64,000 bases of DNA from a phage: the NCBI GenBank assembly GCA_012441205.1, contig GCA_012441205.1_4705.1, one strand, 5' to 3'. The notes under the pieces are model-generated. The model had not been told where the DNA came from and ran no database searches. It worked only from the letters and a program-made list of their open reading frames with translations. Made by a program: the position numbers and the translations under genes. Positions 7,001 through 41,212 of this stretch are shown piece by piece (the first letter of the stretch is position 1; every line of letters begins with the position of its first letter).

Positions 7001-7731
7001 TACGCGATCCTGCGAAACGGGGTGATGTGCGCCAAGTTCGTTATCTGGTTAACGGTGGCTATAATGGATTACGTGACGTTGAACAGCGCTCTGCTTATTG
7101 GATTCAGGCGGCTAAGAATGGCACCCTGAAGAAAATGATGGATGAGTTATCGGGATCAACATCAGGCGATCAAGCTGAAGGACCGACTACCGCCGAGCAG
7201 GTGAAGAATGAAGCAGCCCAAGAGGCAAACGGAACGCCAACTGTAAGCAACGATCCGCAAGCCCCAGCACCTTCAACCACCCCTGAAGCTAAACCGTCTG
7301 CGGCTGCCGGTACGGCTCCAGCACCCGGAGAAGCATCACCAGCGCCTGGAAGTTTCGAAACAGCGAAAGCTGCGGCAGGACAACCGACATCAACGCCAGC
7401 ACTTAGCGATTTGCCGTCAAACCCTGGCGCAAATCGAGGGATATCGGTTCCGAATACGCCTGCACAGGTCGCGCAGTCTGCGACACAAACATCGGCCGCG
7501 AGTGAGAACTTCTACGGTAGCGCAGGTGAAATTCTCCGACAGCAGCTGACCACGCAGCAGAACATCGAGAAGAACACCGGTAGAACGAATGAACTTATTT
7601 CGGAATTAATCCAAGCCGTTAAGGGTTCTTCTATCGGTAAGGGTTCTGCAAGTCCTTCTCAACAACAGGCGATGTCGCTACCTAATCGTCCGCAAGGAAT
7701 CTCTCCAACACGGACAAGGTACGCGCAGTAG
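1066..7731 (+). CDS. giant virion-associated protein (~2220 aa) with Gly-rich hydrophobic segment and C-terminal GH19-like peptidoglycan hydrolase domain
   Basis: Single uninterrupted ORF (track 973..7731, GTG); preferred start ATG 1066 with GGAGG 5 nt upstream. Architecture resembles tape-measure or ejected cell-wall-degrading proteins of large phages. Confidence 0.8.
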   Translation: MVDKTRVEGDDNWDNWDEDFSLDLDFNEPKDDRKPITRFAIGAVKGAAEDLTSYERMKEIARNALPKGYSDGMDLIDSAVGSTKELYNEAVRDVLPKVQSSKRLAAQLTKKYRASMPDFSKKILEQWEREAKEEDERKQAEETLRQRMASAGDDEIARKVAEALGESANQSADQFAEQQAKESIRDDIADKRYAVTNKQMSAMQEGVAKMVGFNNEFAARYMRKSLELKYRSLAIQRASFDQHKKLAEVYIGLLQNIQKNTALPDAAKAKMSEEFRRSAYQRFFGNALDAMSSFENRFFADVKKNLATNALGALKGVVSGANDALYGLNEARDSMSMMDGMGSEGDIKEMQGKMLGQFIGSTVAPWMANKGRMALRDLAKRHPNAKFASALKAVDQGGEAAAYTTRNLGKLLQEDIRKNEFNLSDPFYKQLLRGAGRWAFNMDSGRNFRVMNDTAETLAEQTSFDGLTYRSINEVIPGFLARILKSSEGIRTGNSDPDYEVYDGISGQFVSQRTREQSVNDTLFNKRTFGYYASRFNEVISVIDPDKQLSEKARKALAKQLARDSDANIAFDPARFTDESNFDRSIDRDAIKELSTYFRDRYGIRDDVNDKGERHQVIGNRGQYYTERNRADLRYGHLKSLQPDIQRNLNLLKRTGDVQYLERIGIVTRNSDGSYSVNHDRYFSEIDQYIDRPEYADRGDVNTRLTAQETRALALGYRDAKPSAGDVQNVGLPNIGRKAAGTVTVDENIGYDKWWNDTGVITTSLEEQNRAWQELYLEALSEASEQRVEMLALLKAISEKDWSNNVSLDGEDVPEGTAPISFIDRAKQKLGGRNLFKGGRNLLWKGIKNTARLGVKGARWGAERTLGSLVNSGRRIINFNRFVFGALSKVDQVPFDIYVKGESQPRILAAKLRQGLYFDEATGKAVKRMKDIKGPLVDADGNIVISNEDIEKGLVTRAGRAFENSGLKAWAREGLNGITTALSLPRMLKRGAVEIYKQLDKTPDVYVKGESTPRLLSMVLAAGGYFRRSDGQVIKNLEDIDGDVVDAQGNVVLTLADMQKGLVDKYGKAIRRLKEKLINFGVKAFTLPLTLLRKTKDILKALPGKTVNGLRRMGLNFQSPDALLVGTTSSMVDRLDAIYQLLDQRMPGGDKDYRDWNGDGVREGSLEDLKRKREAKENGKDDIGKDSNKGEEKEKKRGLLGSLFDMLGDTAIGKRLMASPLGKILGGLGAVLSGGASLTGLLGKGLIRGTGALVKGGLSAAGWLGRGALMAGGAALNAVGGLSGLGAFLISPVGLAIAGGALAAYAGWKIYQHFAEKPDPMQKLRLIAYGAKGDDKDFNKKLLATETYLTDHVVMTGDTIGFDPKADSEKILEIWELSLEDSDRMNEWKRWYLHRFIPVFARAYKLWKEHMPDEKKYMEMDKYPNGENKVKWSEAFIWPSDSPDGPYYVEANPLGSSGATRYIAGQDVKTLMLKQLEAIKKEYQNQIKQYTHDEAIADWSRMSDTQRKSVAPNALRGQKASLRFNDKRYNSAGAKGRQKLDATAVIESVDRRGRKWVAGGYIDELTSLRVRAYGIKVPLLSQIKVLMELEDAVEPGVVAEGKGVKYGGDLVALYKKFATKFGRDVNSKHDQDIWFAWMNNRFLPVFLTYYQQVSDMGGQGLLSDVVQNLKDSQRWEIGEELVAAQYRDEKGTLQPVWSWNSCGFSGTEANTTSSSTKSQLDLLKEYADKEKVREKNAEASQEDTDKLSKIQELMMKQAGYEKKDGVWQKKSRITGGMSNSEANYNPNGNKVGASSFTASATSSAGLGSTGDLTGLPNMGLQKPATGPGPEAGRRALVKSAVKRGITDPMEMAMFLANIEHESGNYTHVREGNYKTPEHLKQVFPYKFRDVQDAAQTISMGPEAVFERVYGNRKDLGNTQKGDGAKYLGRGFIQVTGKANYARLSKTLNKDLVSDPSYLETPEGAAEGSVAWWLNRGNVLRDPAKRGDVRQVRYLVNGGYNGLRDVEQRSAYWIQAAKNGTLKKMMDELSGSTSGDQAEGPTTAEQVKNEAAQEANGTPTVSNDPQAPAPSTTPEAKPSAAAGTAPAPGEASPAPGSFETAKAAAGQPTSTPALSDLPSNPGANRGISVPNTPAQVAQSATQTSAASENFYGSAGEILRQQLTTQQNIEKNTGRTNELISELIQAVKGSSIGKGSASPSQQQAMSLPNRPQGISPTRTRYAQ
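4680..4990 (+). other. Gly/Ala/Leu-rich hydrophobic segment (GxxxG-like repeats) inside giant protein; probable membrane-inserting region
   Basis: Translation GLLGSLFDMLGDTAIGKRLMASPLGKILGGLGAVLSGGASLTGLLGKGLIRGTGALVKGGLSAAGWLGRGALMAGGAALNAVGGLSGLGAFLISPVGLAIAGGALAAYAGW. Confidence 0.5.
6560..7130 (+). other. GH19-like (chitinase/lysozyme family) catalytic domain within giant protein
   Basis: Motifs FLANIEHESGNY, YLGRGFIQVTGKANY, GSVAWWLNRG and YLVNGGYNGLRDVEQRSAYW match GH19 signatures (HET/HES catalytic region, GRGPIQLSWNYNY, AIWFWM). Confidence 0.65.
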
Positions 7732-12202: not shown

Positions 12203-12254
12203 AGGTAACGTTATACGTCGCCTTCATGACTGTCATCATGAAGGTAATATAGTC
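12203..12254 (+). promoter_or_regulatory. conserved intergenic element, copy A (candidate phage promoter or regulator site)
   Basis: AGGTAACGTTATACGTCGCCTTCATGACTGTCATCATGAAGGTAATATAGTCC; near-identical to 37921-37976; lies in a divergent intergenic region about 35 bp upstream of ATG 12286. Confidence 0.4.
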
Positions 12255-12285
12255 CTGTTATTTTTTTCAATACGGAGAATGTAAA

Positions 12286-14312: not shown

Positions 14313-14987
14313 TTAGCCCTCATCAAGGTTATTCTGGAGATGCATCGCGGTGAGGATAACGCCAACCGCCGAAACCGATTTTGCCTTGCTGTCTTCAGGG
14401 AGCTGCTCCAAGCTTACGGTACCTGTTTCTAACAGCATGCGGTTCATCGCGTTGAACTTCTTATCGTCACCACCACGAGCCTGCATCAGCTCTCGGTTCA
14501 CGTTCGGCATCGACCGTCCTAACGTCGCTTGCATTTCCGGCTGGCTCCAAGTGGAACCTTTACTATCACCCGTCGGCTGATTGGTGAGCTGGTCCTTGGT
14601 GTTGTTGTTTTTCGGAATCGAAATTTTAGCACTCAACGTTTCGGCTTGTCGGCGGTTTGGAATCAGGTACAATCTGGTTGGGCGGTCACGAAGCACCAAT
14701 TGCCCTGTTTTCTGGTCGGTGAGATAAATGCGTTGGAAGAAAGGGAAACCGTATTTCTTACCGACTTCCAACGCACGTTTTATCGTCACCTCGTTTTTGT
14801 TCATGTTGGGTACCCAGATGGGTAGAATCTCTTTCTTATCCCGACATAAACGCATATAGGCATCAAACGTCTCATCATCGATTTCAGCAAAACGTTTTTT
14901 GTAAATAGCGTAAGTCGGGCTCGATTCACCCACCAGGTCTTTGATATACCCAAGAATGAATTTTTCTGCTGCAGCGCGGTTGGACAT
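14313..14987 (-). CDS. hypothetical protein (224 aa)
   Basis: ORF tightly packed in minus-strand operon. Confidence 0.6.
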   Translation of the reverse strand: MSNRAAAEKFILGYIKDLVGESSPTYAIYKKRFAEIDDETFDAYMRLCRDKKEILPIWVPNMNKNEVTIKRALEVGKKYGFPFFQRIYLTDQKTGQLVLRDRPTRLYLIPNRRQAETLSAKISIPKNNNTKDQLTNQPTGDSKGSTWSQPEMQATLGRSMPNVNRELMQARGGDDKKFNAMNRMLLETGTVSLEQLPEDSKAKSVSAVGVILTAMHLQNNLDEG

Positions 14988-14996
14988 AAACGTCTC

Positions 14997-15338
14997 CTAT
15001 TGTCGTGTCTGTTGCGGAAATACCCGAAACACCTGGACAATGATGTTCTTGTCCTCGCGGTTGGCGATGTCGATCATGTGTTTTGTTCCAGGACTTTTGA
15101 AATCCCAGAACGCAATTAAATGCGTAATGACATCGCCCATCCACTCATTGCGTCTGAATCCAGCACCTTTACGATAAGGACCATCCCAATCGGCAGGAAA
15201 CGTGGTGTATTTAAACCCGTAATCCTTCGCGTAGCGGCGCACATGCAAATCAGCGCCTGAATGCGCACCGCCAGCAATGAGATGAACTTTGTCGTGAGGA
15301 AGGTTGTGTAACATCTGGTTCATACGCTTTTCGAACAA
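14997..15338 (-). CDS. small protein, possible SLOG/DUF2493-like fold
   Basis: Translation LIAGGAHSGADLHVRRYAKDYG...FPADWDG...GAGFRRNEWMGD...LIAFWD..SPGTKHMI resembles the GG.x.GAD / ADW / RN..M / AFWD..S.GT pattern of that family; recalled from memory, not searched. Confidence 0.4.
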   Translation of the reverse strand: MFEKRMNQMLHNLPHDKVHLIAGGAHSGADLHVRRYAKDYGFKYTTFPADWDGPYRKGAGFRRNEWMGDVITHLIAFWDFKSPGTKHMIDIANREDKNIIVQVFRVFPQQTRQ

Positions 15339-15391
15339 GGGATAATCATCCCAGTAGCGTGATCCCGATACCCCTACACGATAGGGTTCGC

Positions 15392-15712
15392 TTATCTTCC
15401 ACCGCGCAATGACTTTACGTTGCGTGCGATAAAGGGTGCAACGTAATCACGGAAATTATGGATCCATCCTTTAATGGGTTGGTTGTCTAGTAAGCACTCA
15501 CGTACCGAAAACGTACTTACTTCTAATACACCAAACTGTAGTCGCCAATAGCGATTGATTTCAGCTTGGGTATGTTCTAATGTCATGTACTCAGGAACAC
15601 GAGCCAATAGGTCGTGTTTAAATTGCTCAGCAATCGCTGGTTGATGTGACGCAATTGTCTGCGTGATAACATCAATCAGTTCATGTGCATGCTTGATAGC
15701 AGGTGCGGTCAT
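15392..15712 (-). CDS. hypothetical protein (106 aa)
   Basis: ORF in operon context. Confidence 0.5.
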   Translation of the reverse strand: MTAPAIKHAHELIDVITQTIASHQPAIAEQFKHDLLARVPEYMTLEHTQAEINRYWRLQFGVLEVSTFSVRECLLDNQPIKGWIHNFRDYVAPFIARNVKSLRGGR

Positions 15713-15724
15713 TTATTTAGCCTT

Positions 15725-17215
15725 TTATTTTTTACTCGGACGATTCAATGCGGGTACCGGGTTCTTTGGTTGCTTTGTCTTTTCATCCATCCAGTACGGG
15801 AAGTACTCACCAGTACGCATACGCAATAAGTCCATTGTGGACAGGAACGGCAGCGGGTTAGGATCGTCCAGATACGTCCAGTAACCACGCGTGTTTAACA
15901 ATACATCCCAATCGAAACCTTTTGCTTTAAGATCGTCGTACAGTTCCTGTGGGGTGCAATACAGCTGTGGGTTTTCGTAAACCTCTTGACGCCAGAGATT
16001 ATGCATTTGACACAGCTCCGACGTAATTTCCAGAGCACGCTGTAAATACTCATCCTCTTCGCAGAGAGAACGAATGGTCGTACGCTGCAACGCAACATCC
16101 GGATAAATATCCAAATATACCGTTGAAGCACCATCAGCTGACTTACCACCTGACGCATGCATACCCCAACCACGCATCCAATCTTTATCACGCAGGTAGT
16201 GGTATTCCGTTAATGATGGTTTAACCCCTTCGCTCTGACTAACCACAATCGGGAACGGTAAGCCGGTGGGTCCGTTTTTAGCGCGCATGTTAAAGACTTG
16301 AATCAACTGCAGATCGGTATCCCCGATAAGGTTGTCACCAGGCCCACGCGGATAAAGGACGCGTTTATCCGCGTTCTGAAGAATCGTCAGTTTATCGATT
16401 TTCCAGAGGTTATTCGTATAAAACGTGAAGCGTTCCGGGACGTTCTTAAACTTCTCATCGCCCTTAAACCCTTTCAGTTTTCGTACCGGTTGCTGTCCCG
16501 GCATACCACCAACGTTTACACCGTCACCAAGGTGGGCGGTCATGGTAATGTAGATACCCGCCGACGCTGTGAGTACTGGCATCTGTGATAGAATCTGGCT
16601 TTTCGCAGCTGCTGAACGCATCGCTTCAGCATTCAGTTTTGCGCCACCCGCGGTTTCTTTATCGAACAGTGCATCAACGGCATCGATTGGTAATCCAGAG
16701 AAACTGTCGATGAGTACAACGGTCGGCAACCACCAGGTATAGTTCTCACCGTGTTTATTAATAAACGGAACGGCTTTGCGTTGAGATTTATCTTTGACCT
16801 TGTCGTCACGGAATTTCTTAATCGCATCAAACCAAATGTTACCGCTCATCTGAACAGCATCGGTGATAAACACACGTTCTTCTTCGAAAAGATCGACACC
16901 TGCGATATTAGACATGTTCATCGCAAGCGTTAAGATACGTGTTGTCGTTAACGACATTTCTGTGTCGTAAACGCTACTATTGCTGTTTGCGTAACGATCG
17001 ATAACGCGTAACAAGCGAAACATTATGAACGTGGTTTTGTTCATGTTGCCGCGAGCGCCTGCGCCCTCAACAAGCATCATGCCGCCGTTACAAATGCTTT
17101 CACCGTGTTTACCGACATAGTACCGACCACCAGATGTGGGAATATCCATTAAGCAACCAATGTTGAGATTAAAACGCATCTCTTCACCAGGAGAAAGGTA
17201 CTTATTAAGATTCAT
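15725..17215 (-). CDS. RecA-superfamily ATPase, possible UvsX/RecA-like recombinase (496 aa)
   Basis: Candidate Walker A EGAGARGNMNKTTF, Walker B-like TVVLIDSFSGL (cf. UvsX VVFIDSLGNL, RecA IVVDSVAAL), then AEAMRSAAAKSQIL...AGIYITMTAHL (cf. RecA ARMMSQAMRKLAG...LLIFINQ). Confidence 0.5.
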   Translation of the reverse strand: MNLNKYLSPGEEMRFNLNIGCLMDIPTSGGRYYVGKHGESICNGGMMLVEGAGARGNMNKTTFIMFRLLRVIDRYANSNSSVYDTEMSLTTTRILTLAMNMSNIAGVDLFEEERVFITDAVQMSGNIWFDAIKKFRDDKVKDKSQRKAVPFINKHGENYTWWLPTVVLIDSFSGLPIDAVDALFDKETAGGAKLNAEAMRSAAAKSQILSQMPVLTASAGIYITMTAHLGDGVNVGGMPGQQPVRKLKGFKGDEKFKNVPERFTFYTNNLWKIDKLTILQNADKRVLYPRGPGDNLIGDTDLQLIQVFNMRAKNGPTGLPFPIVVSQSEGVKPSLTEYHYLRDKDWMRGWGMHASGGKSADGASTVYLDIYPDVALQRTTIRSLCEEDEYLQRALEITSELCQMHNLWRQEVYENPQLYCTPQELYDDLKAKGFDWDVLLNTRGYWTYLDDPNPLPFLSTMDLLRMRTGEYFPYWMDEKTKQPKNPVPALNRPSKK

Positions 17216-18643: not shown

Positions 18644-20170
18644 TTACTCCAACACATAACGTGGGTTACTGTATATGTTAGCCCATATACCAACGTCGTC
18701 TCCCGACTCAATAATCACAGCGAAACGAAACGCAACATCAGACTCGCGATATGTTACCGCGTACGCTTTCGTTTCCGGTGATGCTAAATAGCTCAAGTTC
18801 AGACGTTGAGGCAGGTCTAACCCCAAGGACATGGTACAAGACGTAACGCCCTGCTTATCGGGGGTCAGTCTGTAATTCACGTCCACCTTCAAGCTTTTCG
18901 TAACCTGCGTAATCGCACTATGCACTTTGGTAACCGTTTTGCCTTTCTTATCCTTTTCTGTTTCGAAAAGAACGTCGGTAATTTCGGTTACGACTAGACG
19001 CGGTGTGGATTCGCGGTTAGCGTCAAGCCATTCATCCAGTAACGTCTTTAAGAAGTTCAAGGAATCAATCGCACGCCAAGCAAGGTTAGGCGGGTTGCAC
19101 GCTTCCATTAAAATGGCTGTGTTGGATCCACCTAGCGGAAGATGCACGCTCTTACCGAGGCCTGTCGGACGCATCGTAAGATCGCACTCACCCTCAAGAA
19201 TATCGCGATGATATTGACGATGATGAAGGTTATCCGTGTATGCGATATACACTGACTCCGTTGTCCCATGCTCTAATACCCGAGATGCATGCGTACGCAT
19301 AATCTCAACAGCATCATCCGGCTTGCTTAGATAGATAACACTGTACGCACTATCGCTAATCCTTTTCCCTAACTCAAGACGTCCCTTGTTGTCTTTATCG
19401 GTGTTACCACCGAAATAGATGTAGCGGCCATCTTTCGCACGCTCTTGCTGCTGGTTGGTGGTAAAGTAGCAGCGTGAGAACGTAAAGAACGGGCTTATTT
19501 CCGGTTCGGGGCTCCAATACCCCTTAGCCGGAAGTTCGCGGCGTATTTGGGTTCTTACAGCCCAGTCCTGGTTTTGTGATAGATATGTTCCACGCGTTGC
19601 CAACATATCCGCACGTTCGTTACCAACATTGCCCTCATGTCCAGGAACATAGCGCAGCGAAATATCGATAGCGTCGCGCTTCGCATCCCTTATCGCGCTA
19701 TCGAGTTTCCGCCACCGTTCCGCATTCATTAACGGTTTATTGTCGGATTTAACCCAGTTGTTCTCTCGCCAATTAGCAAGATGGTTGGTGGCACCTACAA
19801 CAACATATTGGCTGTCCGACAACAGCTGGATCCGTTTTGCCCCCTTTGCTTTTCCAAGTTCAATCGCACGTATTGCGGCATCCAACTCAGCCTGATTGTT
19901 CGTTACATTGAAACCCAAAGCCTCTAACTCATCCACGTATTCCTTGGGTTCGACCAGCACAGCGTCTTTAGGAAAGTCGAGTTTAGGGTCAACATAACCG
20001 TATTGCGTTGGTTTGGGCTTCCCACTTTTTGAAGGTTCCAAGGTGCCTTTTATTTCTTTCACCATATCGTAGGTGTAGCCATGCACGCCATAGCCACCAT
20101 ACCCACTCGATGTTGGACGGGATCCTCCATCACAGTAGAAAACGGCACCAAGCTCAGTATTTCCTGCCAT
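18644..20170 (-). CDS. RNase H (type 1, RnhA-like) domain protein with ~330-aa uncharacterised C-terminal extension
   Basis: CDGGS, TNNQAELDAAIRAIELG, LSDSQYVV, NWRENNWVKSDNKPLMNAERWRKL and VPGHEGNVGNERADMLA match the RnhA motifs TDGSC, TNNRMEL..AL, STDSQYV, W..W...KPVKN..LW and GHAG...NE.CD.LA. Preferred start ATG 20170 (GAGG upstream); ORF track starts at 20182. Confidence 0.8.
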   Translation of the reverse strand: MAGNTELGAVFYCDGGSRPTSSGYGGYGVHGYTYDMVKEIKGTLEPSKSGKPKPTQYGYVDPKLDFPKDAVLVEPKEYVDELEALGFNVTNNQAELDAAIRAIELGKAKGAKRIQLLSDSQYVVVGATNHLANWRENNWVKSDNKPLMNAERWRKLDSAIRDAKRDAIDISLRYVPGHEGNVGNERADMLATRGTYLSQNQDWAVRTQIRRELPAKGYWSPEPEISPFFTFSRCYFTTNQQQERAKDGRYIYFGGNTDKDNKGRLELGKRISDSAYSVIYLSKPDDAVEIMRTHASRVLEHGTTESVYIAYTDNLHHRQYHRDILEGECDLTMRPTGLGKSVHLPLGGSNTAILMEACNPPNLAWRAIDSLNFLKTLLDEWLDANRESTPRLVVTEITDVLFETEKDKKGKTVTKVHSAITQVTKSLKVDVNYRLTPDKQGVTSCTMSLGLDLPQRLNLSYLASPETKAYAVTYRESDVAFRFAVIIESGDDVGIWANIYSNPRYVLE

Positions 20171-20220
20171 TGTAAACCTCATTAATCATTGTCCGTATGA
20201 TAGCCCAAAGTTGTACGGTA

Positions 20221-20772
20221 TTACCGATTACCGTCAGTTGACGTTGGTTGATTGCGATCGATTTTCATTGACCGTAATTTTCCACCATTAGTTACACACT
20301 GATTGCGCTGTTCGACGGAGGCCAGACTGTTACAGACATAATAAGTATCGATAAAACGCTCAACGCGTTCTTGAAACTTCCTCCCGGCAACTTGCTCTTT
20401 TTCAAAAGTTCGTAATGCACGATCGACCTCACCTTGGAGAATCCGGTTCTGTTCAACCATACTGTCTATTAAACGGCCTCGCACTTCGTTCGATGTGTAG
20501 AGTTGATGAATCAGTTCTCGGTTGGTGTCTCGCGCATAACGCAATGTTGCATTTTCCTGACGTAAACTACTCACGTCAGCCATCAAGGTAATGATTTTTT
20601 CGCCAGCGAATAACGTCACGATACCCAATACGATGAAAAAGCCCGTAATCAAGAATATCGAGGACTGTCGAGCTCCATCTCGACGATAGCGTGTGGGCGG
20701 TCGCTTACTTCGCCGAAACAACTCGCGAAGAAAAGGGAAAAGCCAGGGCAACGCCTTGAGTGTAGTAAACAT
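20221..20772 (-). CDS. membrane-anchored coiled-coil protein (183 aa)
   Basis: N-terminal hydrophobic segment SSIFLITGFFIVLGIVTLFAG followed by a charged, heptad-like region; preferred start ATG 20772 (AAGGA upstream). Confidence 0.5.
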   Translation of the reverse strand: MFTTLKALPWLFPFLRELFRRSKRPPTRYRRDGARQSSIFLITGFFIVLGIVTLFAGEKIITLMADVSSLRQENATLRYARDTNRELIHQLYTSNEVRGRLIDSMVEQNRILQGEVDRALRTFEKEQVAGRKFQERVERFIDTYYVCNSLASVEQRNQCVTNGGKLRSMKIDRNQPTSTDGNR

Positions 20773-20826
20773 GCGTGTGTCCTTGATAGTATGAAATTTC
20801 CAATACAACTTAACCGAGGACGTCGA

Positions 20827-22167
20827 ATGATTAGTATTTTTGGTTTTTATACGTACAAAGGGTACGCTAATAACCACCCAAAAACCACGGCGAAATTCGG
20901 TGAGTTCAGTCAGCACAGTGCTACGTTCAGTCGCGAAATCGGCATCTATACCAACACGGCGTACGCACGTACGACCTTATTAGTGTTGAATGCCGAAAAC
21001 GAAGCTGGTGAAGCACAAACGCTGAATGACGACACCGCAGGCCGCATTCTTCAGGTTGGTCAATGGTTGCTGGAAAAAGCCTCATCAGGCGAAATCCAGG
21101 ATGACCGAGACCAGGTTATCGGCTACCTAAAAGACGACTTCACAACGTATCTGGATTCTATCGACATCCCAACACCCACCACCGATGGTACCGTCTATCT
21201 ACCGGCGTGGATCAGTTTCAAGATAACCGCCACCGGCGATGTCGTCAAGATTTGGTTGTCTGATAGCGTATTCCAAAGTCAATATCCAAAATACGAATAT
21301 GAAGTCGTTCCCCCTGTTCCTAAGGATCAGTTAGATACCTTCTTCGAAGATCTGGCAACATTGAAGAAACTGGTTGACAGTCGAAGCAGCGAGAAACTGA
21401 CCGAAGAAATCAACGAGGTGCGCGACCAATTCCCAGACACACAATTGTGGACGAAAACATATAAAGCGTACGATTACACCGACGATTCGAAATATATTAA
21501 TACCGATTGGACGGTGATTATCTACGGTGCAGCAGGTAACAACATTGATAATATCAAGGAGTTCCTGCAAAACTGGATTCTTAGCAATAGCACGCACGGA
21601 CGTCCAGACTGGGAAATCGTTCTGCCGGATCTTTTTATTCCGACGGAACACATCTTCATTCCAATCTGGAACCGCCACAGTGCGCCAGAAATGACCAATC
21701 AGGCACGTATCTATAGTCCTATATTCGATGATTCGTTGATGGATACCTACCTGAAAAACTTTGCTGATGGTTACGGCGAAACCGCCGAAGTCCGTAAATC
21801 GCTTCAAGCGGTGCCGACGTTGTGGCGCTCGATCGGTTTCTTAAGCGTTGGTAACTCACGTAACCGAGACGGTAAACTTAAGTTCTACGATCGTTGGCCG
21901 CAATACGCGCTCATCAGCACAACCAGCATCGATATTAACCGTATCGATGATGCGACACGTGAATTCATCACGTTCACTTACGAAATGCTGAAACTGGCAG
22001 AATCGCTGACCGAAGACGACCCGGTACCGTTGGGTTATAGTCGTGTTACGCGTGGTAGCAATAGCTTCTTAGCGAAAAGCCACAACGATGTTCAGTATCT
22101 CTTCTTAACAAAAGAAGCGTTCCTGAAGAAAATGCCGGATGAAGCCGACACGCCTGTTGGAGGTTGA
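20827..22167 (+). CDS. hypothetical protein (446 aa)
   Basis: ORF; preferred start ATG 20827 with GAGGA 6 nt upstream (track start 20791). Confidence 0.6.
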   Translation: MISIFGFYTYKGYANNHPKTTAKFGEFSQHSATFSREIGIYTNTAYARTTLLVLNAENEAGEAQTLNDDTAGRILQVGQWLLEKASSGEIQDDRDQVIGYLKDDFTTYLDSIDIPTPTTDGTVYLPAWISFKITATGDVVKIWLSDSVFQSQYPKYEYEVVPPVPKDQLDTFFEDLATLKKLVDSRSSEKLTEEINEVRDQFPDTQLWTKTYKAYDYTDDSKYINTDWTVIIYGAAGNNIDNIKEFLQNWILSNSTHGRPDWEIVLPDLFIPTEHIFIPIWNRHSAPEMTNQARIYSPIFDDSLMDTYLKNFADGYGETAEVRKSLQAVPTLWRSIGFLSVGNSRNRDGKLKFYDRWPQYALISTTSIDINRIDDATREFITFTYEMLKLAESLTEDDPVPLGYSRVTRGSNSFLAKSHNDVQYLFLTKEAFLKKMPDEADTPVGG

Positions 22168-22169
22168 TT

Positions 22170-22796
22170 ATGGCTGTAACACGCATGACGCCAAGTCCCG
22201 GTGCGGTCGGGGTATTCACAGTATCAGCGCCGTTTACCGTTGGTGCGTCAACGCTATATACCGTTACAGCGTTGCGAAGATTCAGCGAAGTCATCGGTAG
22301 TGGAATCGATCTATTTACGGAACTGTACGAACCGTTATCAATAGACAAATCCACATTCGAAGCGCATCTCGAAGCGAATGCTTATCTCGTCACGTTGCAA
22401 CCGGATTACGGTGCACCCGTACTGGTACCTGATACGTATATCACGTCGTACCCAAAGAACGATTCATTGCGGTATCGTCGCATTATTCTGGGTATCGATT
22501 TCGGGCCTCTTCCTCCCGGTCTTGACCTTTCGTATTTAACAACGATATTGAAAGGTAAGGCCAGTGATATTCTTGGTGTCGAACCTGAAGTTAAAACGAT
22601 GGAAATCACTCTCGATGATACCGTTACTCAGGAACAACATCAGATAAACGAAGCCCGTCGTCAGGCCGCGATAAAAGAGCGAGATACCATATACGCACGT
22701 TGTGAAACGCAAGAGAAGCAGATAACGGCTTTACTTGCAACCCAAAAGCAACTTATCAAATTGCTTCAAGACGCCGGTATCAATCCGACACCTTAA
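22170..22796 (+). CDS. hypothetical protein (208 aa) with C-terminal coiled-coil-like region
   Basis: ATG 22170 with GGAGG 6 nt upstream; overlaps the preceding stop. Confidence 0.6.
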   Translation: MAVTRMTPSPGAVGVFTVSAPFTVGASTLYTVTALRRFSEVIGSGIDLFTELYEPLSIDKSTFEAHLEANAYLVTLQPDYGAPVLVPDTYITSYPKNDSLRYRRIILGIDFGPLPPGLDLSYLTTILKGKASDILGVEPEVKTMEITLDDTVTQEQHQINEARRQAAIKERDTIYARCETQEKQITALLATQKQLIKLLQDAGINPTP

Positions 22797-22839
22797 CATA
22801 TTCCCTCCTCCTTCCCTGTTGGGTTGGAGGAGGGTTATG
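22797..22839. repeat. GGAGG-stem palindromic hairpin element (family copy)
   Basis: CATA-TTCCCTCCTCC-ttCCCtgttGGGtt-GGAGGAGGG-TTATG, immediately after stop 22796. Confidence 0.65.
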
Positions 22840-22848
22840 CTGTCAAGC

Positions 22849-22864
22849 AAAAAAAAAAAAAAAA
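22849..22864. repeat. A16 homopolymer tract
   Basis: 16 consecutive A, 10 nt downstream of the hairpin. Confidence 0.9.
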
Positions 22865-22909
22865 TGATAGTCACAGGCTCTCCAATGAAGGAGAGCCGTG
22901 ACCGTCAGT

Positions 22910-23611
22910 TTAAGATGCAGATAATCTCGCGTACTTCTGGCGAACATGGTTCTTACGGCGAACTTCGTCGTCCTCGTCGCGCCATTCGAGGTAAGCAACG
23001 AATCGACGTAACTGCGCCGCCGTCATCGTTGACGAGCGGTCTTCTACGTCTAGAACAACGTAACGAACATCACCAACGCCATCGCAATCAACGTAACTGA
23101 ATACCAAAAGGCCATCGCCGTACTCAACGATGGTAACTTCGAATCGTTTATCGAACAAATAAAACAGTTCCGATTCAATGATCATCGGAATGACGCATAA
23201 ATCAGCACGATTGAGGATTTCCATCATCACCCGTAACGCGCGAGGAGTATGGCGAGCGAACTGGTCGTTAAAACGTTGTTTCATCGCTTGTTCCACGCCA
23301 TCTGTTTTTGTTCCAAACCACGGACGTACTACAGATTTCGGTGGTGTAAGACGAAAGCGATATGCTTGTATAAACAACAGAATATCAGCGACGTTAGGAA
23401 ATTCTTCCTGGTCTTCGTATATCTTGCGGATAATATCCGGAATCGTAACCATCAAGTATTTCTTATCGCCTCCCACTTTCTCGAGATTAGCAATATGTCC
23501 TTCTACCACAGGCTGGTAAACGAAATTATACCAATGACGGTATCTTTCAGTACGTTGGTAGTTTGGGATAAAATTAAGAATAATACTCACTGCGCGTTTT
23601 AATGGGTTCAT
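22910..23611 (-). CDS. hypothetical protein (233 aa)
   Basis: ORF with AAGGA upstream of ATG 23611. Confidence 0.6.
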   Translation of the reverse strand: MNPLKRAVSIILNFIPNYQRTERYRHWYNFVYQPVVEGHIANLEKVGGDKKYLMVTIPDIIRKIYEDQEEFPNVADILLFIQAYRFRLTPPKSVVRPWFGTKTDGVEQAMKQRFNDQFARHTPRALRVMMEILNRADLCVIPMIIESELFYLFDKRFEVTIVEYGDGLLVFSYVDCDGVGDVRYVVLDVEDRSSTMTAAQLRRFVAYLEWRDEDDEVRRKNHVRQKYARLSAS

Positions 23612-23625
23612 CGGAAGGATCCTTC

Positions 23626-24039
23626 TTATGTTTTAATATGCACATCGTCAATCCCCTCGGTAATCCAGCCGATGGGAAGGACAATCGTTGTTATCCTGTT
23701 ATGGGTGTAGTGGTTGAGAAAATGGAAATAGTAATTTTTGTTAGACTGTTCGATCCGCAGGTCGAGATGCGCGTCTTCAGGTAACCGTAACCAAGCACCG
23801 TACAGTTCATTAAACTTACGCTGAATTTTACCGGGGTTCATTGGAACCCCACGACCACGACGATGTAGCTGACGTAATGATTCAATCAAACACTCAGAGA
23901 TACCCGTTGTCGTTCCGTTATCGCTTGTATCAATAACGATGAACTCTCGTGACCCACGACCGAGATAAAAGCCAGCGACAAAAGCTGCAGCAACAAAAAT
24001 TATCGTACCGATACCAATATACCAATAGTAAGTATCCAT
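23626..24039 (-). CDS. small membrane protein (N-terminal TM helix)
   Basis: Preferred start ATG 24039 (GAGG upstream); hydrophobic IGIGTIIFVAAAFVAGFYLG. Confidence 0.5.
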   Translation of the reverse strand: MDTYYWYIGIGTIIFVAAAFVAGFYLGRGSREFIVIDTSDNGTTTGISECLIESLRQLHRRGRGVPMNPGKIQRKFNELYGAWLRLPEDAHLDLRIEQSNKNYYFHFLNHYTHNRITTIVLPIGWITEGIDDVHIKT

Positions 24040-24050
24040 AACGACCTCAC

Positions 24051-24578
24051 TTATACCCAATAGTCGGCAAGCGGTTTTACCTTATTAATGGGCAACTGTA
24101 CTTTACCGATGTTCTCTACATCCGCATCAGCGTAGAGAACAATTTTATCACCGTCTCTTTCCCAACGAATAATGAATCGACCAGGAAGAAGATTACTCTG
24201 TTCAAGAGACGCAGTAACCTGTTGTGTTAAAACAGACAACCAAGCAGGCATCAGTGTTGCAACATCTAAGTCATTTGACCATTCAGCGCGTTGCTCCACT
24301 GGACGTAACATACGTTCGACGGTGCGTTGAACTGTTGCGGTGATATAGCCTTTATCTTCGTCACTGATTGGATCAGGACGAGACACAAAACGTTCAGCAG
24401 GCTTGTGGGTAATATATTCATGCAAATCGATGAGTGGTGTTGTCATAGTACTCGCTCCATCAGAATGTAATTGGGTAACCCGTAGGGTTGTCTGCATGCT
24501 ATTCAGCAGCGCAAAAGCGCCATAAACAACAACGATACCAAGTATAGCCAAAACAGAAATCATTAACGTGTATTGCAT
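24051..24578 (-). CDS. membrane protein (N-terminal TM helix)
   Basis: Preferred start ATG 24578 (GGGGAG upstream); hydrophobic LMISVLAILGIVVVYGAFALL. Confidence 0.5.
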   Translation of the reverse strand: MQYTLMISVLAILGIVVVYGAFALLNSMQTTLRVTQLHSDGASTMTTPLIDLHEYITHKPAERFVSRPDPISDEDKGYITATVQRTVERMLRPVEQRAEWSNDLDVATLMPAWLSVLTQQVTASLEQSNLLPGRFIIRWERDGDKIVLYADADVENIGKVQLPINKVKPLADYWV

Positions 24579-24679
24579 TGTCATCTCCCCTACATACGCA
24601 TCTTGAAGATCGGTTAAAAACAACAAAAGAAAAAACGATATAAAGCAAGGTCCTCTGATATCAGAGGACCTTGGATCAA

Positions 24680-25336
24680 TTAGCTTGCAGCTTCTTCATT
24701 TGTATCAGGTTTGCTTCCCCCTAACAAACCGTCAAACAGACCCGTATGTTTCAGGTAGAAGAGAGCGATAGCGCCCATTGCTGCTGCGCTCGTCGCCGTT
24801 AACGCAACCCCGGCACGATACTGCCATTTACGGTCAGGCTTTTGATCAAGAGCCATACGACGCATGTATTCAGCCTCTGCTTCATTCCGATGAATTTCGG
24901 ATTCAGCCAAGCGGGCTAAGGTATCGCGGTCAAGGTTATCATAACGTACGTTCATGGTGGTTTCCTCTTGTTTGGAAGTTGATTGCTTAGTGGATTCTTG
25001 GTCAACAGTCGTTTCAGATGGTTCAAACGGCTGGTTGTTCATTTTCTGATCTTTATTGGTCATGATAGACTCCTTCGATTTTTGAGACGAAATTGATTTA
25101 AACCATCGTGGATGGCGGTATTCAGTTTTACATGTGCAGTTAAGTTTCTCGTGCAGGAAAGCGTAAAAACGTTTTGCGCCTACACGTAAGGCTTTCAGCA
25201 TTACCCATCCACGAGCACTCAAACGGTGTAGCTGTTGCGGTATGTCGAGTTTCCTAGCCAAGCGAAAGTATCTTTCAATCACTTCGATAGGAAACCATTG
25301 TTGTTCCACATCGGTGAGACTGAAAGTCTTATCCAT
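24680..25336 (-). CDS. protein with C-terminal TM helix (218 aa)
   Basis: C-terminal AGVALTATSAAAMGAIALFYL. Confidence 0.5.
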   Translation of the reverse strand: MDKTFSLTDVEQQWFPIEVIERYFRLARKLDIPQQLHRLSARGWVMLKALRVGAKRFYAFLHEKLNCTCKTEYRHPRWFKSISSQKSKESIMTNKDQKMNNQPFEPSETTVDQESTKQSTSKQEETTMNVRYDNLDRDTLARLAESEIHRNEAEAEYMRRMALDQKPDRKWQYRAGVALTATSAAAMGAIALFYLKHTGLFDGLLGGSKPDTNEEAAS

Positions 25337-25365
25337 GATTGAAATCTCGCTGGCTTACTTCACTT

Positions 25366-25388
25366 AAGTAATATAGCCGTGAAAAATG
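25366..25388 (+). promoter_or_regulatory. partial copy of conserved intergenic element (copy C)
   Basis: TAAGTAATATAGCCGTGAAAAATG shares the 17-mer GTAATATAGCCGTGAAA with 37966-37982. Confidence 0.35.
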
Positions 25389-25486
25389 TTGGATTAAGTT
25401 AAATACCGCAACCGCAGCTAATTTTATAGGCTTTTAGCCTAAACCAATCATCTTCGGAATCATCATCTTTGAAACAGGAATCTATC

Positions 25487-26308
25487 ATGGAAAAAGTATT
25501 TGTTTGTAAGTTGTTTACCAACGGCAATAGCCAACCAATGTATCTGACCGATCCTGTTCTAGGTAATCGGAACAGTACCGTATTCAAAGAGGCTTTCGAA
25601 TACGCTAAAAATAAAGCCGTGAGAACACTGACGTCTGATGACTGTATCAACGGTATCACGTGGGCAGAGTTAATCGGTGATGCCGTTCGACACTTCGTTC
25701 GGGATGCGAGAAAACGGGAAATCTGTCTCACGACTATTGTTGTGCGTGAAAACGCAGAAATTTTATCAAACGTTTTGGTTGATTTTAATGACGTTTGTGT
25801 GTTTAATCCAGAGAACACGTTTGAACAATACCTTACTGCCCTGAACAACCAGCTCGGTAAAGATATTCATCCCGAATTCGCCAAGTTAACATATCAGTTA
25901 CTTTTTGACGACGTCGATCCAAATACGAAGATCGATACCAGCTTATCGCCCCTGGTAAAGAAATACGGATCGGTTCTCGCTACGGCAACACCCACCACCG
26001 ATGGTGGTTATGATATCGAATTGGATGATCCATTAAAAGAACAAGAGCCTACTGGGGTTAGGGCGGTACATCACAACCTCGTCGTTAAATCTGATGGATG
26101 CGATGAACATTACGCTATGATAAACGATGAAAACAATTACCGTTTAAGTCAAGCGATTGGTGTTCTACGCTATACCGAACCCACTGTTGTAGACGATTAT
26201 ACATCGACAACAACGCACACCACGTGTTTCATTTTCATCTATCCCAATGAAAGTGTGTACATTACCGACTGCTATGGCAATACCGTAGATAGCTTACGTC
26301 GTTATTGA
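25487..26308 (+). CDS. hypothetical protein (273 aa)
   Basis: Preferred start ATG 25487 with AGGAA upstream (track start 25469). Confidence 0.6.
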   Translation: MEKVFVCKLFTNGNSQPMYLTDPVLGNRNSTVFKEAFEYAKNKAVRTLTSDDCINGITWAELIGDAVRHFVRDARKREICLTTIVVRENAEILSNVLVDFNDVCVFNPENTFEQYLTALNNQLGKDIHPEFAKLTYQLLFDDVDPNTKIDTSLSPLVKKYGSVLATATPTTDGGYDIELDDPLKEQEPTGVRAVHHNLVVKSDGCDEHYAMINDENNYRLSQAIGVLRYTEPTVVDDYTSTTTHTTCFIFIYPNESVYITDCYGNTVDSLRRY

Positions 26309-26315
26309 TTATCGA

Positions 26316-26341
26316 GCCTGTCCTTCGGGGCAGGCTTTTTA
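26316..26341 (+). terminator. intrinsic terminator (UUCG-loop hairpin followed by T5)
   Basis: GCCTGTCC-ttcg-GGGCAGGC followed by TTTTT, directly after stop 26308. Confidence 0.7.
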
Positions 26342-26417
26342 TGCTGTTAAATATCAGGAATAAGAATTAACAAAATAGGAAAATGGTGTGTATATAACAC
26401 AAAGGAGGGAGATGATT

Positions 26418-36439: not shown

Positions 36440-36715
36440 TTATACGGCTTTTCTGTGCGCGTAGAACGCCTTCGTTCCGTTGTTGATTGCTTCAACCACA
36501 TCCCGGGTTAACACAACGGCGTTATCGCTTCGAGACGACGGTGCGTAATACCCTTCACCGTTCTCGGTAATCAGGCGATAACGGACTAAGCCTATGCTCG
36601 GTTCAACACGTAGCACCTTCTCAAGTTTGTATTTGATGATCTTCGTCAGGCTAACCGTGTCTGACGCGTAGATCGCTTTATAAACTTTGTTCTTTGCTGT
36701 GGGTTTCATCAACAT
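36440..36715 (-). CDS. hypothetical protein (91 aa)
   Basis: ORF. Confidence 0.45.
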   Translation of the reverse strand: MLMKPTAKNKVYKAIYASDTVSLTKIIKYKLEKVLRVEPSIGLVRYRLITENGEGYYAPSSRSDNAVVLTRDVVEAINNGTKAFYAHRKAV

Positions 36716-36755
36716 GATTTCTGTTGTATTTTCCTTTTCGCTTGTTGGTGTTGGA

Positions 36756-37055
36756 TTAATGTTTAGGTTCCGTTTTGTGTTGTGCGAGTAATGTGTTGAT
36801 CTGCTCCCGTTGTTCTTTTAAGCATGCAGGAAGCTGGTCTTCCCGTACCGTTCCGATTTCCAACGTGATGTACCAACGTTGTTCGGAAGCCTGCCATTGA
36901 AAACTGCTCTGTAACCTCAGGATGCTAGGATCACGTACCTTGCTTGCACTGTAACGGTTGAACCAATCCAGGTATGCTGCTTTCCCTTCCTCGTCAGCGA
37001 TGTAACGCTGCACGCTGTTCTTCCCTTTGTTCTCGTATCCCGTTGCACGTATCAT
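36756..37055 (-). CDS. hypothetical protein (99 aa)
   Basis: Preferred start ATG 37055 overlaps upstream stop as ATGA; ORF track extends to 37109. Confidence 0.45.
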   Translation of the reverse strand: MIRATGYENKGKNSVQRYIADEEGKAAYLDWFNRYSASKVRDPSILRLQSSFQWQASEQRWYITLEIGTVREDQLPACLKEQREQINTLLAQHKTEPKH

Positions 37056-37834: not shown

Positions 37835-37920
37835 TTAAAAAGTTCCTCTGTTTCACGTTAATTAAACAACGTATTGATTTCTATTTGACAGAATACGAAC
37901 ATCGTACGTATCTATCACTT

Positions 37921-37976
37921 AGGTAACGCTTACGCGTCGCGTTCATGATACCATGCATCATGAAGGTAATATAGCC
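37921..37976 (+). promoter_or_regulatory. conserved intergenic element, copy B
   Basis: AGGTAACGCTTACGCGTCGCGTTCATGATACCATGCATCATGAAGGTAATATAGCC; near-identical to 12203-12254. Confidence 0.4.
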
Positions 37977-38085
37977 GTGAAAGGATTTGTGTTAACGCAA
38001 GGGTTTTGTTTGTTTTTTAAGAAGGGATGGATTTAGAAGAGGTGTTTCAAGGAAGGTAAACGAGAATAGGTATTTTGATTTAAGT

Positions 38086-38210
38086 AAGATGTTATCTGTA
38101 TCCGTTAGAAGTGTATTGTCTAAGTTATCTTGTTTATCTTAGGTTTAATCGTTTTTATCTTGGTATGTTTAAGTTGTTTTTATTTAACTGTTAAAATGCT
38201 TATCTTCAAA
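38086..38210. repeat. AT-rich tract with reiterated TTATCT/TTATC motifs (iteron-like)
   Basis: gTTATCTgta, gTTATCTtg, tTTATCTtag, tTTATCTtgg, cTTATCTtc within about 120 bp. Confidence 0.5.
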
Positions 38211-38220
38211 ACAATGGATA

Positions 38221-38269
38221 ACATGTGTTTACTACGCTCGTTGAGTTATAACTCAACGGTAACACATGT
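38221..38269. repeat. nested palindrome (cruciform-capable)
   Basis: Outer arms ACATGTGTT / AACACATGT enclosing inner arms CGTTGAGTT / AACTCAACG. Confidence 0.6.
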
Positions 38270-38428
38270 CATCTGTGCATTACACTACGTTACATGCTAG
38301 TTAAATCGGATAACTCAAAAAAACATTTGTGATACTCTTCTTCACGTTGTTCATCAGAGTATCTCGTCTATACTCATTGCATTCGTATACGACATAACCG
38401 TTACACGCTAACGCTACGCTTATAGCTT

Positions 38429-38495
38429 GATAACTCTAAGGATAAAAACATAAACTCGCTTCGCTCGTTTAGTTTTTCTTTTTCTTAGAGTTATC
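38429..38495. repeat. 12-bp perfect inverted repeat GATAACTCTAAG / CTTAGAGTTATC separated by 43 bp
   Basis: Read directly at 38429-38440 and 38484-38495; GATAACTC also recurs at 38308. Confidence 0.6.
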
Positions 38496-38661
38496 CTGTT
38501 GCTCGTCTCTAAAGGACTTCGCTCCTCCCCCGTCCCCCGAAGGGGCCGAGGTCGTGGAAATTTTACTTTCCAAATACATTTACAACATCTGTAAACTTTT
38601 ACTCCAGGTACTTAATCTTATCATTAGAAATTATAAAAGAGAAAATAAACACAAACATAAA

Positions 38662-38698: not shown

Positions 38699-38704
38699 AT
38701 TAAA

Positions 38705-40576: not shown

Positions 40577-41212
40577 TTACTCAACACTGAACCCGTTCAA
40601 GATGATCGCTTCATAACGCTTACGTTCACGACGTTTGCGTGCCTGCCAACCGTAGATGAATTTCTCATCTTTCTCACGACGTTCCGCTAATTCGATGTAA
40701 TAGGTGCTCTGCATGTCCAGCATCGCATCGATGAGATAATCCTTACCGGTTGCACCACGCTTAGCGATGTAAGCGTCGAGCGCGCTTAACGTCGCAGGTC
40801 CCATCAAACCGTCGGCGTTGATATTCTTCCAGTACGTTTGTCGGTTGTTCATGACGTTCAGATAACGTTGGAGGTTCTTAACCGGGACGGTTTTGCCAGC
40901 ATTGATACCCAGGTCAAAGAGACGGTCAGCTAAGAACACAGAACGTTTCATGACTTCGTCAAGTTTCATCTTATCCCAGAAGTGGGTCTTGTAGATAAAG
41001 AACGCCATTTCCGTGGTAAGGTTACGCATGTTACCGTCCCAGCCGAATTTCGTTTTCAGCGTGGTTTTGTATTGATCGGCGAGTGTTTTCGTAATGCCGT
41101 GGTTCGTGATTCCACCCGAGTCATCGGGATCGTCGACGTAACCTGCTTCGATGCTGGTTTTATCGCGAATGATAAATTCGCACGTGAAATCTTTCTCAGT
41201 AATCTTAGCCAT
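40577..41212 (-). CDS. endolysin, GH108-type lysozyme domain plus peptidoglycan-binding domain
   Basis: AGYVDDPDDSGGITNHGIT matches the GH108 EGGY..DP.D.GG.T..GIT motif; GLMGPATLSAL matches a PG-binding motif; GAGGAG upstream of ATG 41212; no signal peptide or SAR-like N-terminus. Confidence 0.75.
   Translation of the reverse strand: MAKITEKDFTCEFIIRDKTSIEAGYVDDPDDSGGITNHGITKTLADQYKTTLKTKFGWDGNMRNLTTEMAFFIYKTHFWDKMKLDEVMKRSVFLADRLFDLGINAGKTVPVKNLQRYLNVMNNRQTYWKNINADGLMGPATLSALDAYIAKRGATGKDYLIDAMLDMQSTYYIELAERREKDEKFIYGWQARKRRERKRYEAIILNGFSVE

Follow-up and report, generated by a model that had tools for sequence, protein, structure and literature searches.

Four genes in a 64,000-nucleotide stretch of phage DNA (contig GCA_012441205.1_4705.1 of assembly GCA_012441205.1; the whole stretch is called the window here) are predicted to encode inner-membrane proteins. 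We suggest, at slightly under even confidence for the reading taken as a whole, that they belong to three separate units without a recognisable lysis cassette. One unit would be a protein with a periplasmic coiled coil, the lone member of a spanin-like envelope family of chimalliviruses, and the other two would form an early inner-membrane module for host takeover or exclusion. Window positions 20000–26000 showed 96.6% identity by megablast to Escherichia phage vB_EcoM_Goslar (MK327938), a nucleus-forming jumbo phage of E. coli and a chimallivirus. The four open reading frames (ORFs) coincide, on the minus strand, with annotated Goslar gp247, gp002, gp003 and gp004, after which they are named here (Table 1). 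The Goslar annotation lists these four, together with gp001, as hypothetical proteins, and gp024 as a 'peptidoglycan domain protein'. Goslar is a main model of the nucleus-forming phage field, no holin or spanin is known for it, and neither a full-text literature search nor reviews gave an account of its lysis or of these membrane-protein genes.

A Kyte–Doolittle scan (19-residue window, threshold 1.6) found one transmembrane (TM) segment per protein for the four, with scores of 2.54 for gp247-like (residues 39–57), 2.24 for gp002-like (8–26), 2.67 for gp003-like (7–25) and 1.71 for gp004-like (175–193 of 218), and none in the gp001-like protein or in the GH108 lysin encoded further along the window. 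Since the threshold was passed by about 12 of the 66 greedily called ORFs, most of which are either tiny ORFs judged spurious or large virion proteins with a weak segment, three consecutive strong TM genes are unlikely to have arisen by chance; the first-pass annotation, which had described 23626–24039, 24051–24578 and 24680–25336 as consecutive single-TM genes, was right on this point. Neither gp001 nor any of the four membrane proteins had a meaningful match in Pfam, PHROGs, NCBIfam or PADLOC, and the best library matches (DUF6377, E-value 0.014; SngB, E 0.0011; phrog_23900, E 0.0017) were all set aside as due to the gp247 coiled coil.

The gp247-like protein opens with an amphipathic motif, TLKALPWLFPFLRE, which is followed by the TM segment, a periplasmic leucine zipper of about 60 residues and a C-x11-C pair. 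A summary heptad score failed to separate the proteins, and an explicit a/d register was used in its place: the pattern spans I60 to A119, with I60, V67, I88, I102 and V116 at a positions and L63, L70, L77, N84, L91, M105 and L112 at d positions. The periplasmic part is thus predicted to be a helical coiled coil, as expected of an i-spanin, and there is a weak match to the leucine-zipper Pfam family TSC22 (E 0.023). Four lysine or arginine residues flank the TM segment on its N-side (in the 12 residues before it) against one on its C-side, a bias that points to an N-in/C-out, type II topology like that of i-spanins. The earlier description of 20221–20772 as an N-terminally anchored coiled-coil protein of i-spanin-like topology is thereby borne out at the level of prediction.

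Synteny relates this protein to a known position in phiKZ. On one side, the gp245-like and RNase H genes correspond to phiKZ gp154 (E 1e-7) and gp155; on the other, gp248-like and gp249-like correspond to gp157 (E 4e-76) and gp161 (E 2e-36). RNase H is the next gene after gp247-like, 38 nt downstream, and the phiKZ gene in the same slot is gp156.1, whose 96-residue product consists of an N-terminal motif, a TM segment and a helix. We compared the slot in phiKZ and eight more chimalliviruses, beside Goslar and a metagenomic relative (ENA contig k141_24099, locus L019), and found that all ten of ten lineages have, between RNase H and the divergently transcribed gp157-like virion gene, an RNase H-strand gene for a TM segment plus coiled coil or helix. 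It is followed by a lipobox gene in phiKZ (LISGC), Ralstonia phage RP12 (ORF064/063, LSGC), Vibrio phage pVp-JHP1101 (gp139/140, MGGC) and the SPN3US-like phage EC001 (gp201/202, LTGC). It stands alone in PhiEaH1, PCH45, EL, Special G, Proteus phage 10, Goslar and L019, and no lipobox ORF was found in the slot loci of the first five of these.

The phiKZ pair (NC_004629 160184–160896; 25185–25897 in locus L009) illustrates the two-gene arrangement: gp156, the gene after gp156.1, encodes a Pro-rich protein with a C-terminal helix that starts with a lipoprotein signal, MSRKFFLILLPLISGC. The gp156.1 protein falls in PHROG 14813 and gp156 in 15897/8165; phrog_8165 is matched by the lipoproteins of phiKZ (gp156, E 2e-6), EC001 and the Vibrio phage, and all PHROGs matched by the slot proteins and lipoproteins are labelled 'unknown function'. 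Vibrio gp139 additionally gives a weak match to the Rz-like spanin phrog_739 (E 0.003). In phiKZ transposon-insertion sequencing (TnSeq), orf156 and orf156.1 had zero insertions after trimming; the neighbouring genes were likewise without insertions, and the authors note polar effects in the region. Taken by their architecture, phiKZ gp156.1 and gp156 resemble a spanin-type pair that would come in addition to the proven gp141/gp141.1, and we found no description in the literature of a spanin-like pair at this position. If so, Goslar retains only the inner-membrane half of a pair that is seen in several chimallivirus lineages.

The gp247-like protein shares with phiKZ gp156.1 and its equivalents the slot, the orientation, a predicted N-in arrangement with one TM segment and a periplasmic helix or coiled coil, and an N-terminal motif of the pattern T[LI]KAL..PFL[RK] (TIKALLFVWPFLK vs TLKALPWLFPFLR). 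It differs in being about twice as long (183 vs 96 residues), in ending with the Cys pair and in having no downstream outer-membrane lipoprotein gene, a lack that it shares with the other Goslar-like phages; the sequence similarity is marginal. A Goslar-type gp247 profile ranked positional counterparts as eight of its top nine matches in a set of 68 proteins (PCH45, E 2e-5; EL, 0.0045; RP12, 0.018; phiKZ gp156.1, 0.34), ranks that are inflated by TM and coiled-coil composition. Since the similarity to gp156.1 is weak, orthology rests mainly on synteny and architecture.

With the spanins lambda Rz/Rz1 and phiKZ gp141/gp141.1, gp247-like would have in common the type II topology, a helical coiled-coil periplasmic domain and C-terminal cysteines. 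However, in contrast to two-component spanins it has no embedded, overlapping or adjacent o-spanin and no lysin or holin neighbour, it shows no sequence similarity to phiKZ gp141 (phrog_7584), and its cytoplasmic N-terminus, about 38 residues with the conserved amphipathic motif, is unusually long for an i-spanin. No o-spanin was found in a three-frame read of 20100–20830 or in strict and relaxed lipobox scans of the window. Nor did we find a unimolecular spanin of the T1 gp11 type: none of the four proteins has a lipobox, and gp004-like has a C-terminal TM segment but no N-terminal signal. The only convincing Goslar lipoprotein is gp088 (MKKLCAIILGMLMVLSLGGC; phrog_9559), encoded outside the window at Goslar 97923–98426, about 97 kb from gp247, and it could be an unlinked partner of gp247. 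It adjoins tail-fibre assembly and tail-fibre genes, a position typical of receptor-masking exclusion lipoproteins. Considering that the window has no lipoprotein ORF, that gp088 is distant and that the complementation-proven spanin of phiKZ is another pair, we do not file gp247-like as an i-spanin.

The second unit is the gp004-like gene. Its product has a conserved helical N-domain (about residues 5–80, with motifs EQxWF, RG, LHxKL and PRWF), a disordered polar linker, a helix at 137–164, the TM segment and a 25-residue acidic tail; since four lysine or arginine residues precede the C-terminally placed TM segment, the protein is predicted to be tail-anchored with its N-terminus inside. An AlphaFold2 model from shallow alignments gave helices at 7–64, disorder at 65–131, the 137–164 helix and the TM segment, at a predicted local distance difference test score (pLDDT) of 38, which makes it unusable for fold search. 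A PDB sequence search with gp004 returned nothing. When 1.84 billion representative sequences were scanned in full by HMMER, gp004 gained two genuine distant homologues (P0028 and P0029), the matches P0030 (a low-complexity repeat) and P0031 being spurious. A likeness of the gp004 tail to the tail-anchored ElaB/YqjD proteins (DUF883) was dropped, as neither this C-terminal module nor its look-alikes matched the DUF883 profiles even at E 10. Within the gene, a strong Shine–Dalgarno sequence, AAGGAG, stands 6 nt before an in-frame ATG (M92), which may start a second product of 127 residues; a gene call of that length exists (P0018), but on a 500-bp contig. A second internal Shine–Dalgarno sequence, AGAGGAA, precedes M128, and GAGGAA precedes M132 in the L019 homologue; N-terminally truncated tail-anchored isoforms may be made. 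In Special G (gp141–145, locus L010) and Proteus phage 10 (locus L011), the slot of gp004–gp001 is taken by four or five small proteins in a row, apparently tandem paralogues, whose TM segments are rich in Ala and Gly and whose tails are acidic; in style they resemble the gp004 C-terminal module (Special G gp144, E 8e-4 in a small set).

The position of gp004 behind a recurrent upstream motif suggests that it is probably an early gene. No 7-mer is more enriched in front of the genes of Goslar than ATATTAC (9 observed vs 0.78 expected), which forms the core of a 27-nt motif, wwTTTCACGrCTAyATTACyTwnrTGA, of which Goslar has about 12 copies, all on the gene strand and 50–230 nt upstream of start codons, one of them before the chimallin gene gp189. 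The window carries it at 25360–25386, 37958–37984 and 12236–12262, all on the minus strand, and the first of these, a top-scoring copy, starts 50 nt upstream of the gp004-like ATG. Among the promoters of these phages, only the early ones of the virion RNA polymerase have a defined motif, T-rich and followed by an extended –10 element, and the phiKZ chimallin gene has such an early promoter (PMC7598289; PMC8244752; bioRxiv 10.1101/2023.09.22.559000). The 27-nt motif is probably the Goslar early promoter, used by the virion RNA polymerase; no description of it was found in the searchable literature, and a full-text search for TATATTAC, the box at window 25375–25368, gave no relevant match among the matches listed. 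Matches in a scan for sigma-70 promoters stayed under the shuffled expectation (11 vs 16.5) and were discarded; phages of this kind do without host RNA polymerase. Directly after the gp004-like stop codon stands a strong terminator-like hairpin, 24673–24646, that is annotated as a terminator in Goslar. In L019, too, the homologue is preceded by a copy of the motif and followed by a hairpin with a T-run, although the proteins share only 25% identity. With motif and terminator both kept in L019, we infer that gp004 is probably an early monocistronic gene, which would be atypical of a holin.

The third unit comprises gp003-like and gp002-like, each with an N-terminal TM segment. No lysine or arginine precedes the TM segment of gp002-like and two stand right after it, likewise in the L019 homologue, so that an N-out/C-in orientation with a cytoplasmic C-domain is likely; this domain carries the conserved motif P.GW..EGIDDV. 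For gp003-like, whose start is preceded by the Shine–Dalgarno sequence GGGGAG, the counts are none before and one after (two after in L019), and a low-confidence AlphaFold2 model (pLDDT 58) builds the C-domain from a three-stranded sheet with two helices. Foldseek gave no match at E <= 0.001 in BFVD and the PDB. As their C-domains are more likely cytoplasmic, both proteins are a poor fit to spanins or T4-type holins. Paralogy of the two was ruled out by hhalign (probability 0.2%). A promoter of gp003–gp001 was not identifiable, TATG at 16–19 nt upstream of the gp003 start being too uninformative to count.

The gp004–gp003–gp002 trio is kept in the same order in L019 at 25, 27 and 32% identity (E 2e-12, 8e-14 and 3e-16, respectively), which argues for a conserved but fast-evolving module; the gp247 homologue of that contig is 65% identical, and gp247 stands at 57–66% in the same tier of relatives. 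No gp001 homologue was detected in the L019 contig. In cultured phages the trio has no relatives besides those of Goslar, which for gp004 was seen by tblastn: of 50,697 phage records, gp004 and gp247 each matched Goslar only. Searches of large protein collections likewise gave none but Goslar-like relatives. The interval between the SbcC and DUF7194 genes, which holds gp004–gp001 in Goslar, holds signal-peptide lysins in Vibrio pVp-JHP1101 and EC001, and these differing contents mark it as a variable, envelope-directed region in the family.

Table 1. Coordinates in the window of the genes and signals discussed in the text
Feature	Position	Strand	Basis
gp247-like, 183 aa	20221..20772	-	ORF, TM, flanking charges, synteny
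gp001-like soluble protein, 233 aa, final gene of the minus-strand run	22910..23611	-	ORF, without TM
gp002-like, 137 aa, TM 8-26	23626..24039	-	ORF, TM, charges
gp003-like, 175 aa, TM 7-25	24051..24578	-	ORF, TM, charges, model
gp004-like, 218 aa, TM ~175-193	24680..25336	-	ORF, TM, charges, homologues
Intrinsic-terminator-like hairpin	24646..24673	-	12-bp stem, 7 G-C pairs, then T-rich tract
In-frame internal AAGGAG (25075-25070) and ATG (25063-25061, M92) in the gp004-like gene	25061..25075	-	
27-nt motif TTTTTCACGGCTATATTACTTAAGTGA, read as an early (virion RNA polymerase) promoter	25360..25386	-	motif enrichment, conservation
gp024-like GH108 + PG_binding_3 muramidase	40577..41212	-	Pfam, PHROGs, ORF

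Considering these features together, we propose that gp247-like is the Goslar version of the phiKZ gp156.1-position protein, with a cytoplasmic amphipathic helix, one TM segment and a periplasmic zipper that probably dimerises. In several lineages such a protein would pair with an outer-membrane lipoprotein (phrog_8165) to form an envelope bridge as in a two-component spanin, and in Goslar-like phages it would work either by itself or together with a partner encoded elsewhere, its target most likely being the envelope at a late stage of infection. The gp004-like protein would be made early, from a monocistronic mRNA of the virion RNA polymerase, and would be tail-anchored in the inner membrane, holding its helical N-domain on a flexible cytoplasmic linker. 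The gp003-like and gp002-like proteins, always encoded after gp004 in that order, would be held by their N-terminal TM segments with C-domains that are most likely cytoplasmic. The last two units may then constitute a lineage-specific module for taking over the host envelope or excluding competitors, working early and on the cytoplasmic side of the inner membrane; a role as the holin for the GH108 lysin does not appear to be theirs. Small, lineage-specific early inner-membrane proteins with one or two membrane passes are known from other phages, such as T4 Imm and Sp in exclusion and the bitopic cell-division inhibitor SPO1 gp56; gp004–gp002 have no homology to these, and the likeness is one of analogy only. 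The value of the reading lies in singling out gp004–gp002, a small module that is aimed at membranes and probably early: if this timing is true, they are candidates for phage factors on host membranes at the vesicle stage, and if it is wrong, gp004 is the best holin candidate in the window.

Gene identities, TM segments, synteny, the conserved trio, the promoter-like motif and the terminator are shown by these data, whereas membrane topology, time of expression and function are inferred. Several points weigh against this proposal. The topology of all four proteins is predicted from hydropathy and charge counts, and for gp003 the charge bias is weak. The early timing of gp004 is read from the motif alone. 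The similarity between gp247-like and phiKZ gp156.1 is weak by both measures (E 0.25 for the 13-residue motif, E 0.34 for the profile), and fold, Pfam, PHROG, NCBIfam, PADLOC and PDB evidence provided no positive functional assignment. Further, the GH108 lysin, being cytoplasmic, depends on some holin, which was not identified in this analysis; holins are too diverse for missing homology to exclude one.

An alternative explanation, which we consider unlikely, is that the four proteins are the dispersed lysis partners of the GH108 lysin, with gp004 as a class IIIB-type holin, gp247 as an i-spanin or envelope disruptor, and gp003/gp002 or gp001 as regulators or antiholins; it keeps some weight because of the holin topology of gp004 and the holin that the lysin needs. 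The lysin itself is well defined: the ORF at 40577–41212 matches Glyco_hydro_108 (PF05838, E 1e-20), PG_binding_3 (PF09374, E 1e-18) and phrog_315 'endolysin' (E 2e-38). Like other endolysins of this type, which are canonically holin-dependent, it has both domains at full length and no signal sequence; unlike typical GH108 endolysins, it is encoded by the last gene of a tail-fibre operon, with no adjacent holin or spanin. The first-pass annotation had already remarked on an endolysin without signal or neighbouring holin, and we can confirm it: the protein has neither signal sequence nor TM segment, no credible TM ORF lies at 35–50 kb of the window, and no credible holin ORF lies within about 5 kb of the lysin. 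Small hydrophobic ORFs at 36687–36791 and 38130–38300 were judged spurious, and the nearby gp027 and gp028 have no TM segment, although the annotation likens one of them to a membrane protein. With no export signal on the lysin, a holin must exist.

The comparison for such a holin is phiKZ, the only worked example of lysis in the family, where the genes form one cassette: gp141 and gp141.1 (lipobox LNGCT) are the i-spanin and o-spanin, shown by complementation, gp142 is a class IIIB holin (N-in, about 80 cytoplasmic residues, one TM segment and a periplasmic tail that is short), gp144 is the endolysin, and gp143 acts as a regulator in the cytoplasm (Manohar et al., Sci Rep 2026, PMC12894885). 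In its predicted topology, gp004-like fits class III/IIIB holins, and it shares with gp142 an N-in orientation, a large helical cytoplasmic domain, a single TM segment near the C-terminus and a short periplasmic tail (25 residues in gp004-like). It differs from gp142 in lacking sequence similarity, in a disordered linker of about 65 residues, in having no gp143 homologue and no lysin or spanin cassette around it, and in its early-promoter-like motif and own terminator. As regards homology to gp142 or T, blastp and phmmer gave no match better than E 0.27, and no Pfam or PHROG holin family was matched. None of the Goslar ORFs was matched by phmmer with phiKZ gp141, gp141.1, gp142, gp143, gp144, gp156 or gp156.1, and when the window proteins were compared by blastp with a phiKZ protein set, the lysis cassette drew no match; the phiKZ solution to lysis does not transfer to Goslar by sequence homology.

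Apart from the gp142-like topology, the dispersed-partner explanation draws on the i-spanin-like topology and coiled coil of gp247-like, whose counterparts elsewhere are paired with a lipoprotein gene, on the Rz-like match of Vibrio gp139, on the endolysin carried in the SbcC–DUF7194 interval by Vibrio pVp-JHP1101 and EC001, and on the in-frame internal start of gp004, which recalls dual-start holin/antiholin genes. Against it stand the missing o-spanin (the window has no lipobox ORF, and gp088 is far off), the conserved early-type motif and terminator of gp004, holins being normally late genes, the probably cytoplasm-facing gp002 and gp003, and the fact that the proven phiKZ spanin is gp141/141.1 and not gp156.1/156. 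Moreover, a class IIIB holin is expected in a lysis cassette and late, together with the endolysin, and gp004-like, probably early, lies 15 kb from the GH108 lysin, the four genes being spread over three transcription units at 15–20 kb from it. The earlier proposal that the lysis partners are among these membrane proteins is partly supported. The two topologies, i-spanin-like for gp247 and holin-type for gp004, the lipoprotein genes beside the gp247 counterparts and the endolysin in the SbcC–DUF7194 interval of some chimalliviruses speak for it; the missing lipoprotein and homology, the early-type gp004, the probably cytoplasmic gp002 and gp003 and a second Goslar lysin, gp098, speak against it.

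A lysis system may instead lie in the gp098 region of Goslar, with a secreted or signal-anchor-release (SAR)-type Hydrolase_2 lysin served by gp101/gp100 as pinholin or holin, and with the window proteins as accessories; this, too, we regard as improbable. Goslar gp098 is a 165-residue Hydrolase_2 protein with a signal-like N-terminus, MQGILHTLILGLVMLLITPFSQASV, and matches to PF07486 (E 4e-16) and the endolysin family phrog_938 (E 4e-16). Directly upstream on the same strand stand gp100 (123 residues, about four TM segments) and gp101 (63 residues, two TM segments, a basic tail), and gp103 and gp104 of the same run are signal-peptide proteins. The signal-peptide lysins of the SPN3US-like EC001 and of the Vibrio phage offer a precedent. 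However, the gp105–gp098 run (Goslar 110157–113808; loci L005/L004) lies outside the window, is known only from Goslar and is headed by an early-type motif upstream of gp105, so that it may be an early envelope module; it has no spanin, gp100 and gp101 match no known holin family, and the late-operon GH108 lysin would be left unexplained. The run could serve as another lysin system or remodel the envelope early in infection. The first-pass annotation had said that a canonical holin and spanin pair beside another lysin would speak against lysis partners in the window, and gp098 comes some way towards this, with holin-like multi-TM neighbours in an early-type cluster that lacks a spanin.

That the membrane proteins are superinfection-exclusion or inter-phage competition factors, which would keep other phages or a second chimallivirus from entering or from forming a vesicle, seems to us distinctly doubtful, even though an early membrane function of some kind fits gp004–gp002 better than lysis does. 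The probable early expression of gp004 and the confinement of the family to Goslar-like phages agree with it, and the fast divergence of the trio compared with gp247 (25–32% vs 57–66% in the same tier) is a pattern typical of conflict genes. Competition between co-infecting chimalliviruses is documented (PMC12908238). On the other hand, there is no homology to Imm, Sp, Sie, Llp or Cor and no PADLOC match, and cytoplasm-facing domains would be unusual, entry blockers being usually periplasmic or intramembrane. T4 Imm and Sp act on the periplasmic side. Of the two earlier suggestions, superinfection exclusion or membrane remodelling, taken as a probably early membrane function, is the better fit for gp004–gp002.

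Finally, the predicted architecture of gp004, gp003 and gp002, with large cytoplasmic domains and very short translocated segments (a 7-residue N-tail or a 25-residue C-tail), is of a kind that can insert from the cytoplasmic side without Sec, and we mention as very improbable that, made within the first minutes from a virion RNA polymerase promoter, they are the earliest proteins that the phage itself supplies to the early-infection (EPI) vesicle membrane or adjacent inner membrane, where they might recruit ribosomes or chimallin or control genome hand-over from vesicle to protein nucleus, and, separately, that the gp156.1/gp156-type pair, apparently essential in the phiKZ TnSeq, would be a second envelope bridge with a non-lysis function.

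Some further features of the window were recorded. A tail lysin, gp232 (2252 residues), is encoded at 973–7731. The GenBank record of Goslar begins at window position 22810, between gp249 and gp001, which indicates that the window assembly was linearised differently or is circularly permuted. A gap of about 870 nt at 37835–38705, corresponding to an unannotated gap at Goslar 14972–15825, has no plausible gene, only tiny hydrophobic ORFs, and lies beside one of the early-promoter-like motifs. G+C-rich terminator hairpins very often stand directly before TTTATGC (9 upstream regions vs 1.2 expected), for example at window 26314–26347 on the plus strand and at Goslar 180586, 140970, 110468 and 55080. 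TATG is the core of phiKZ late promoters, and these sites, which contain it, may be combined terminator/promoter elements.

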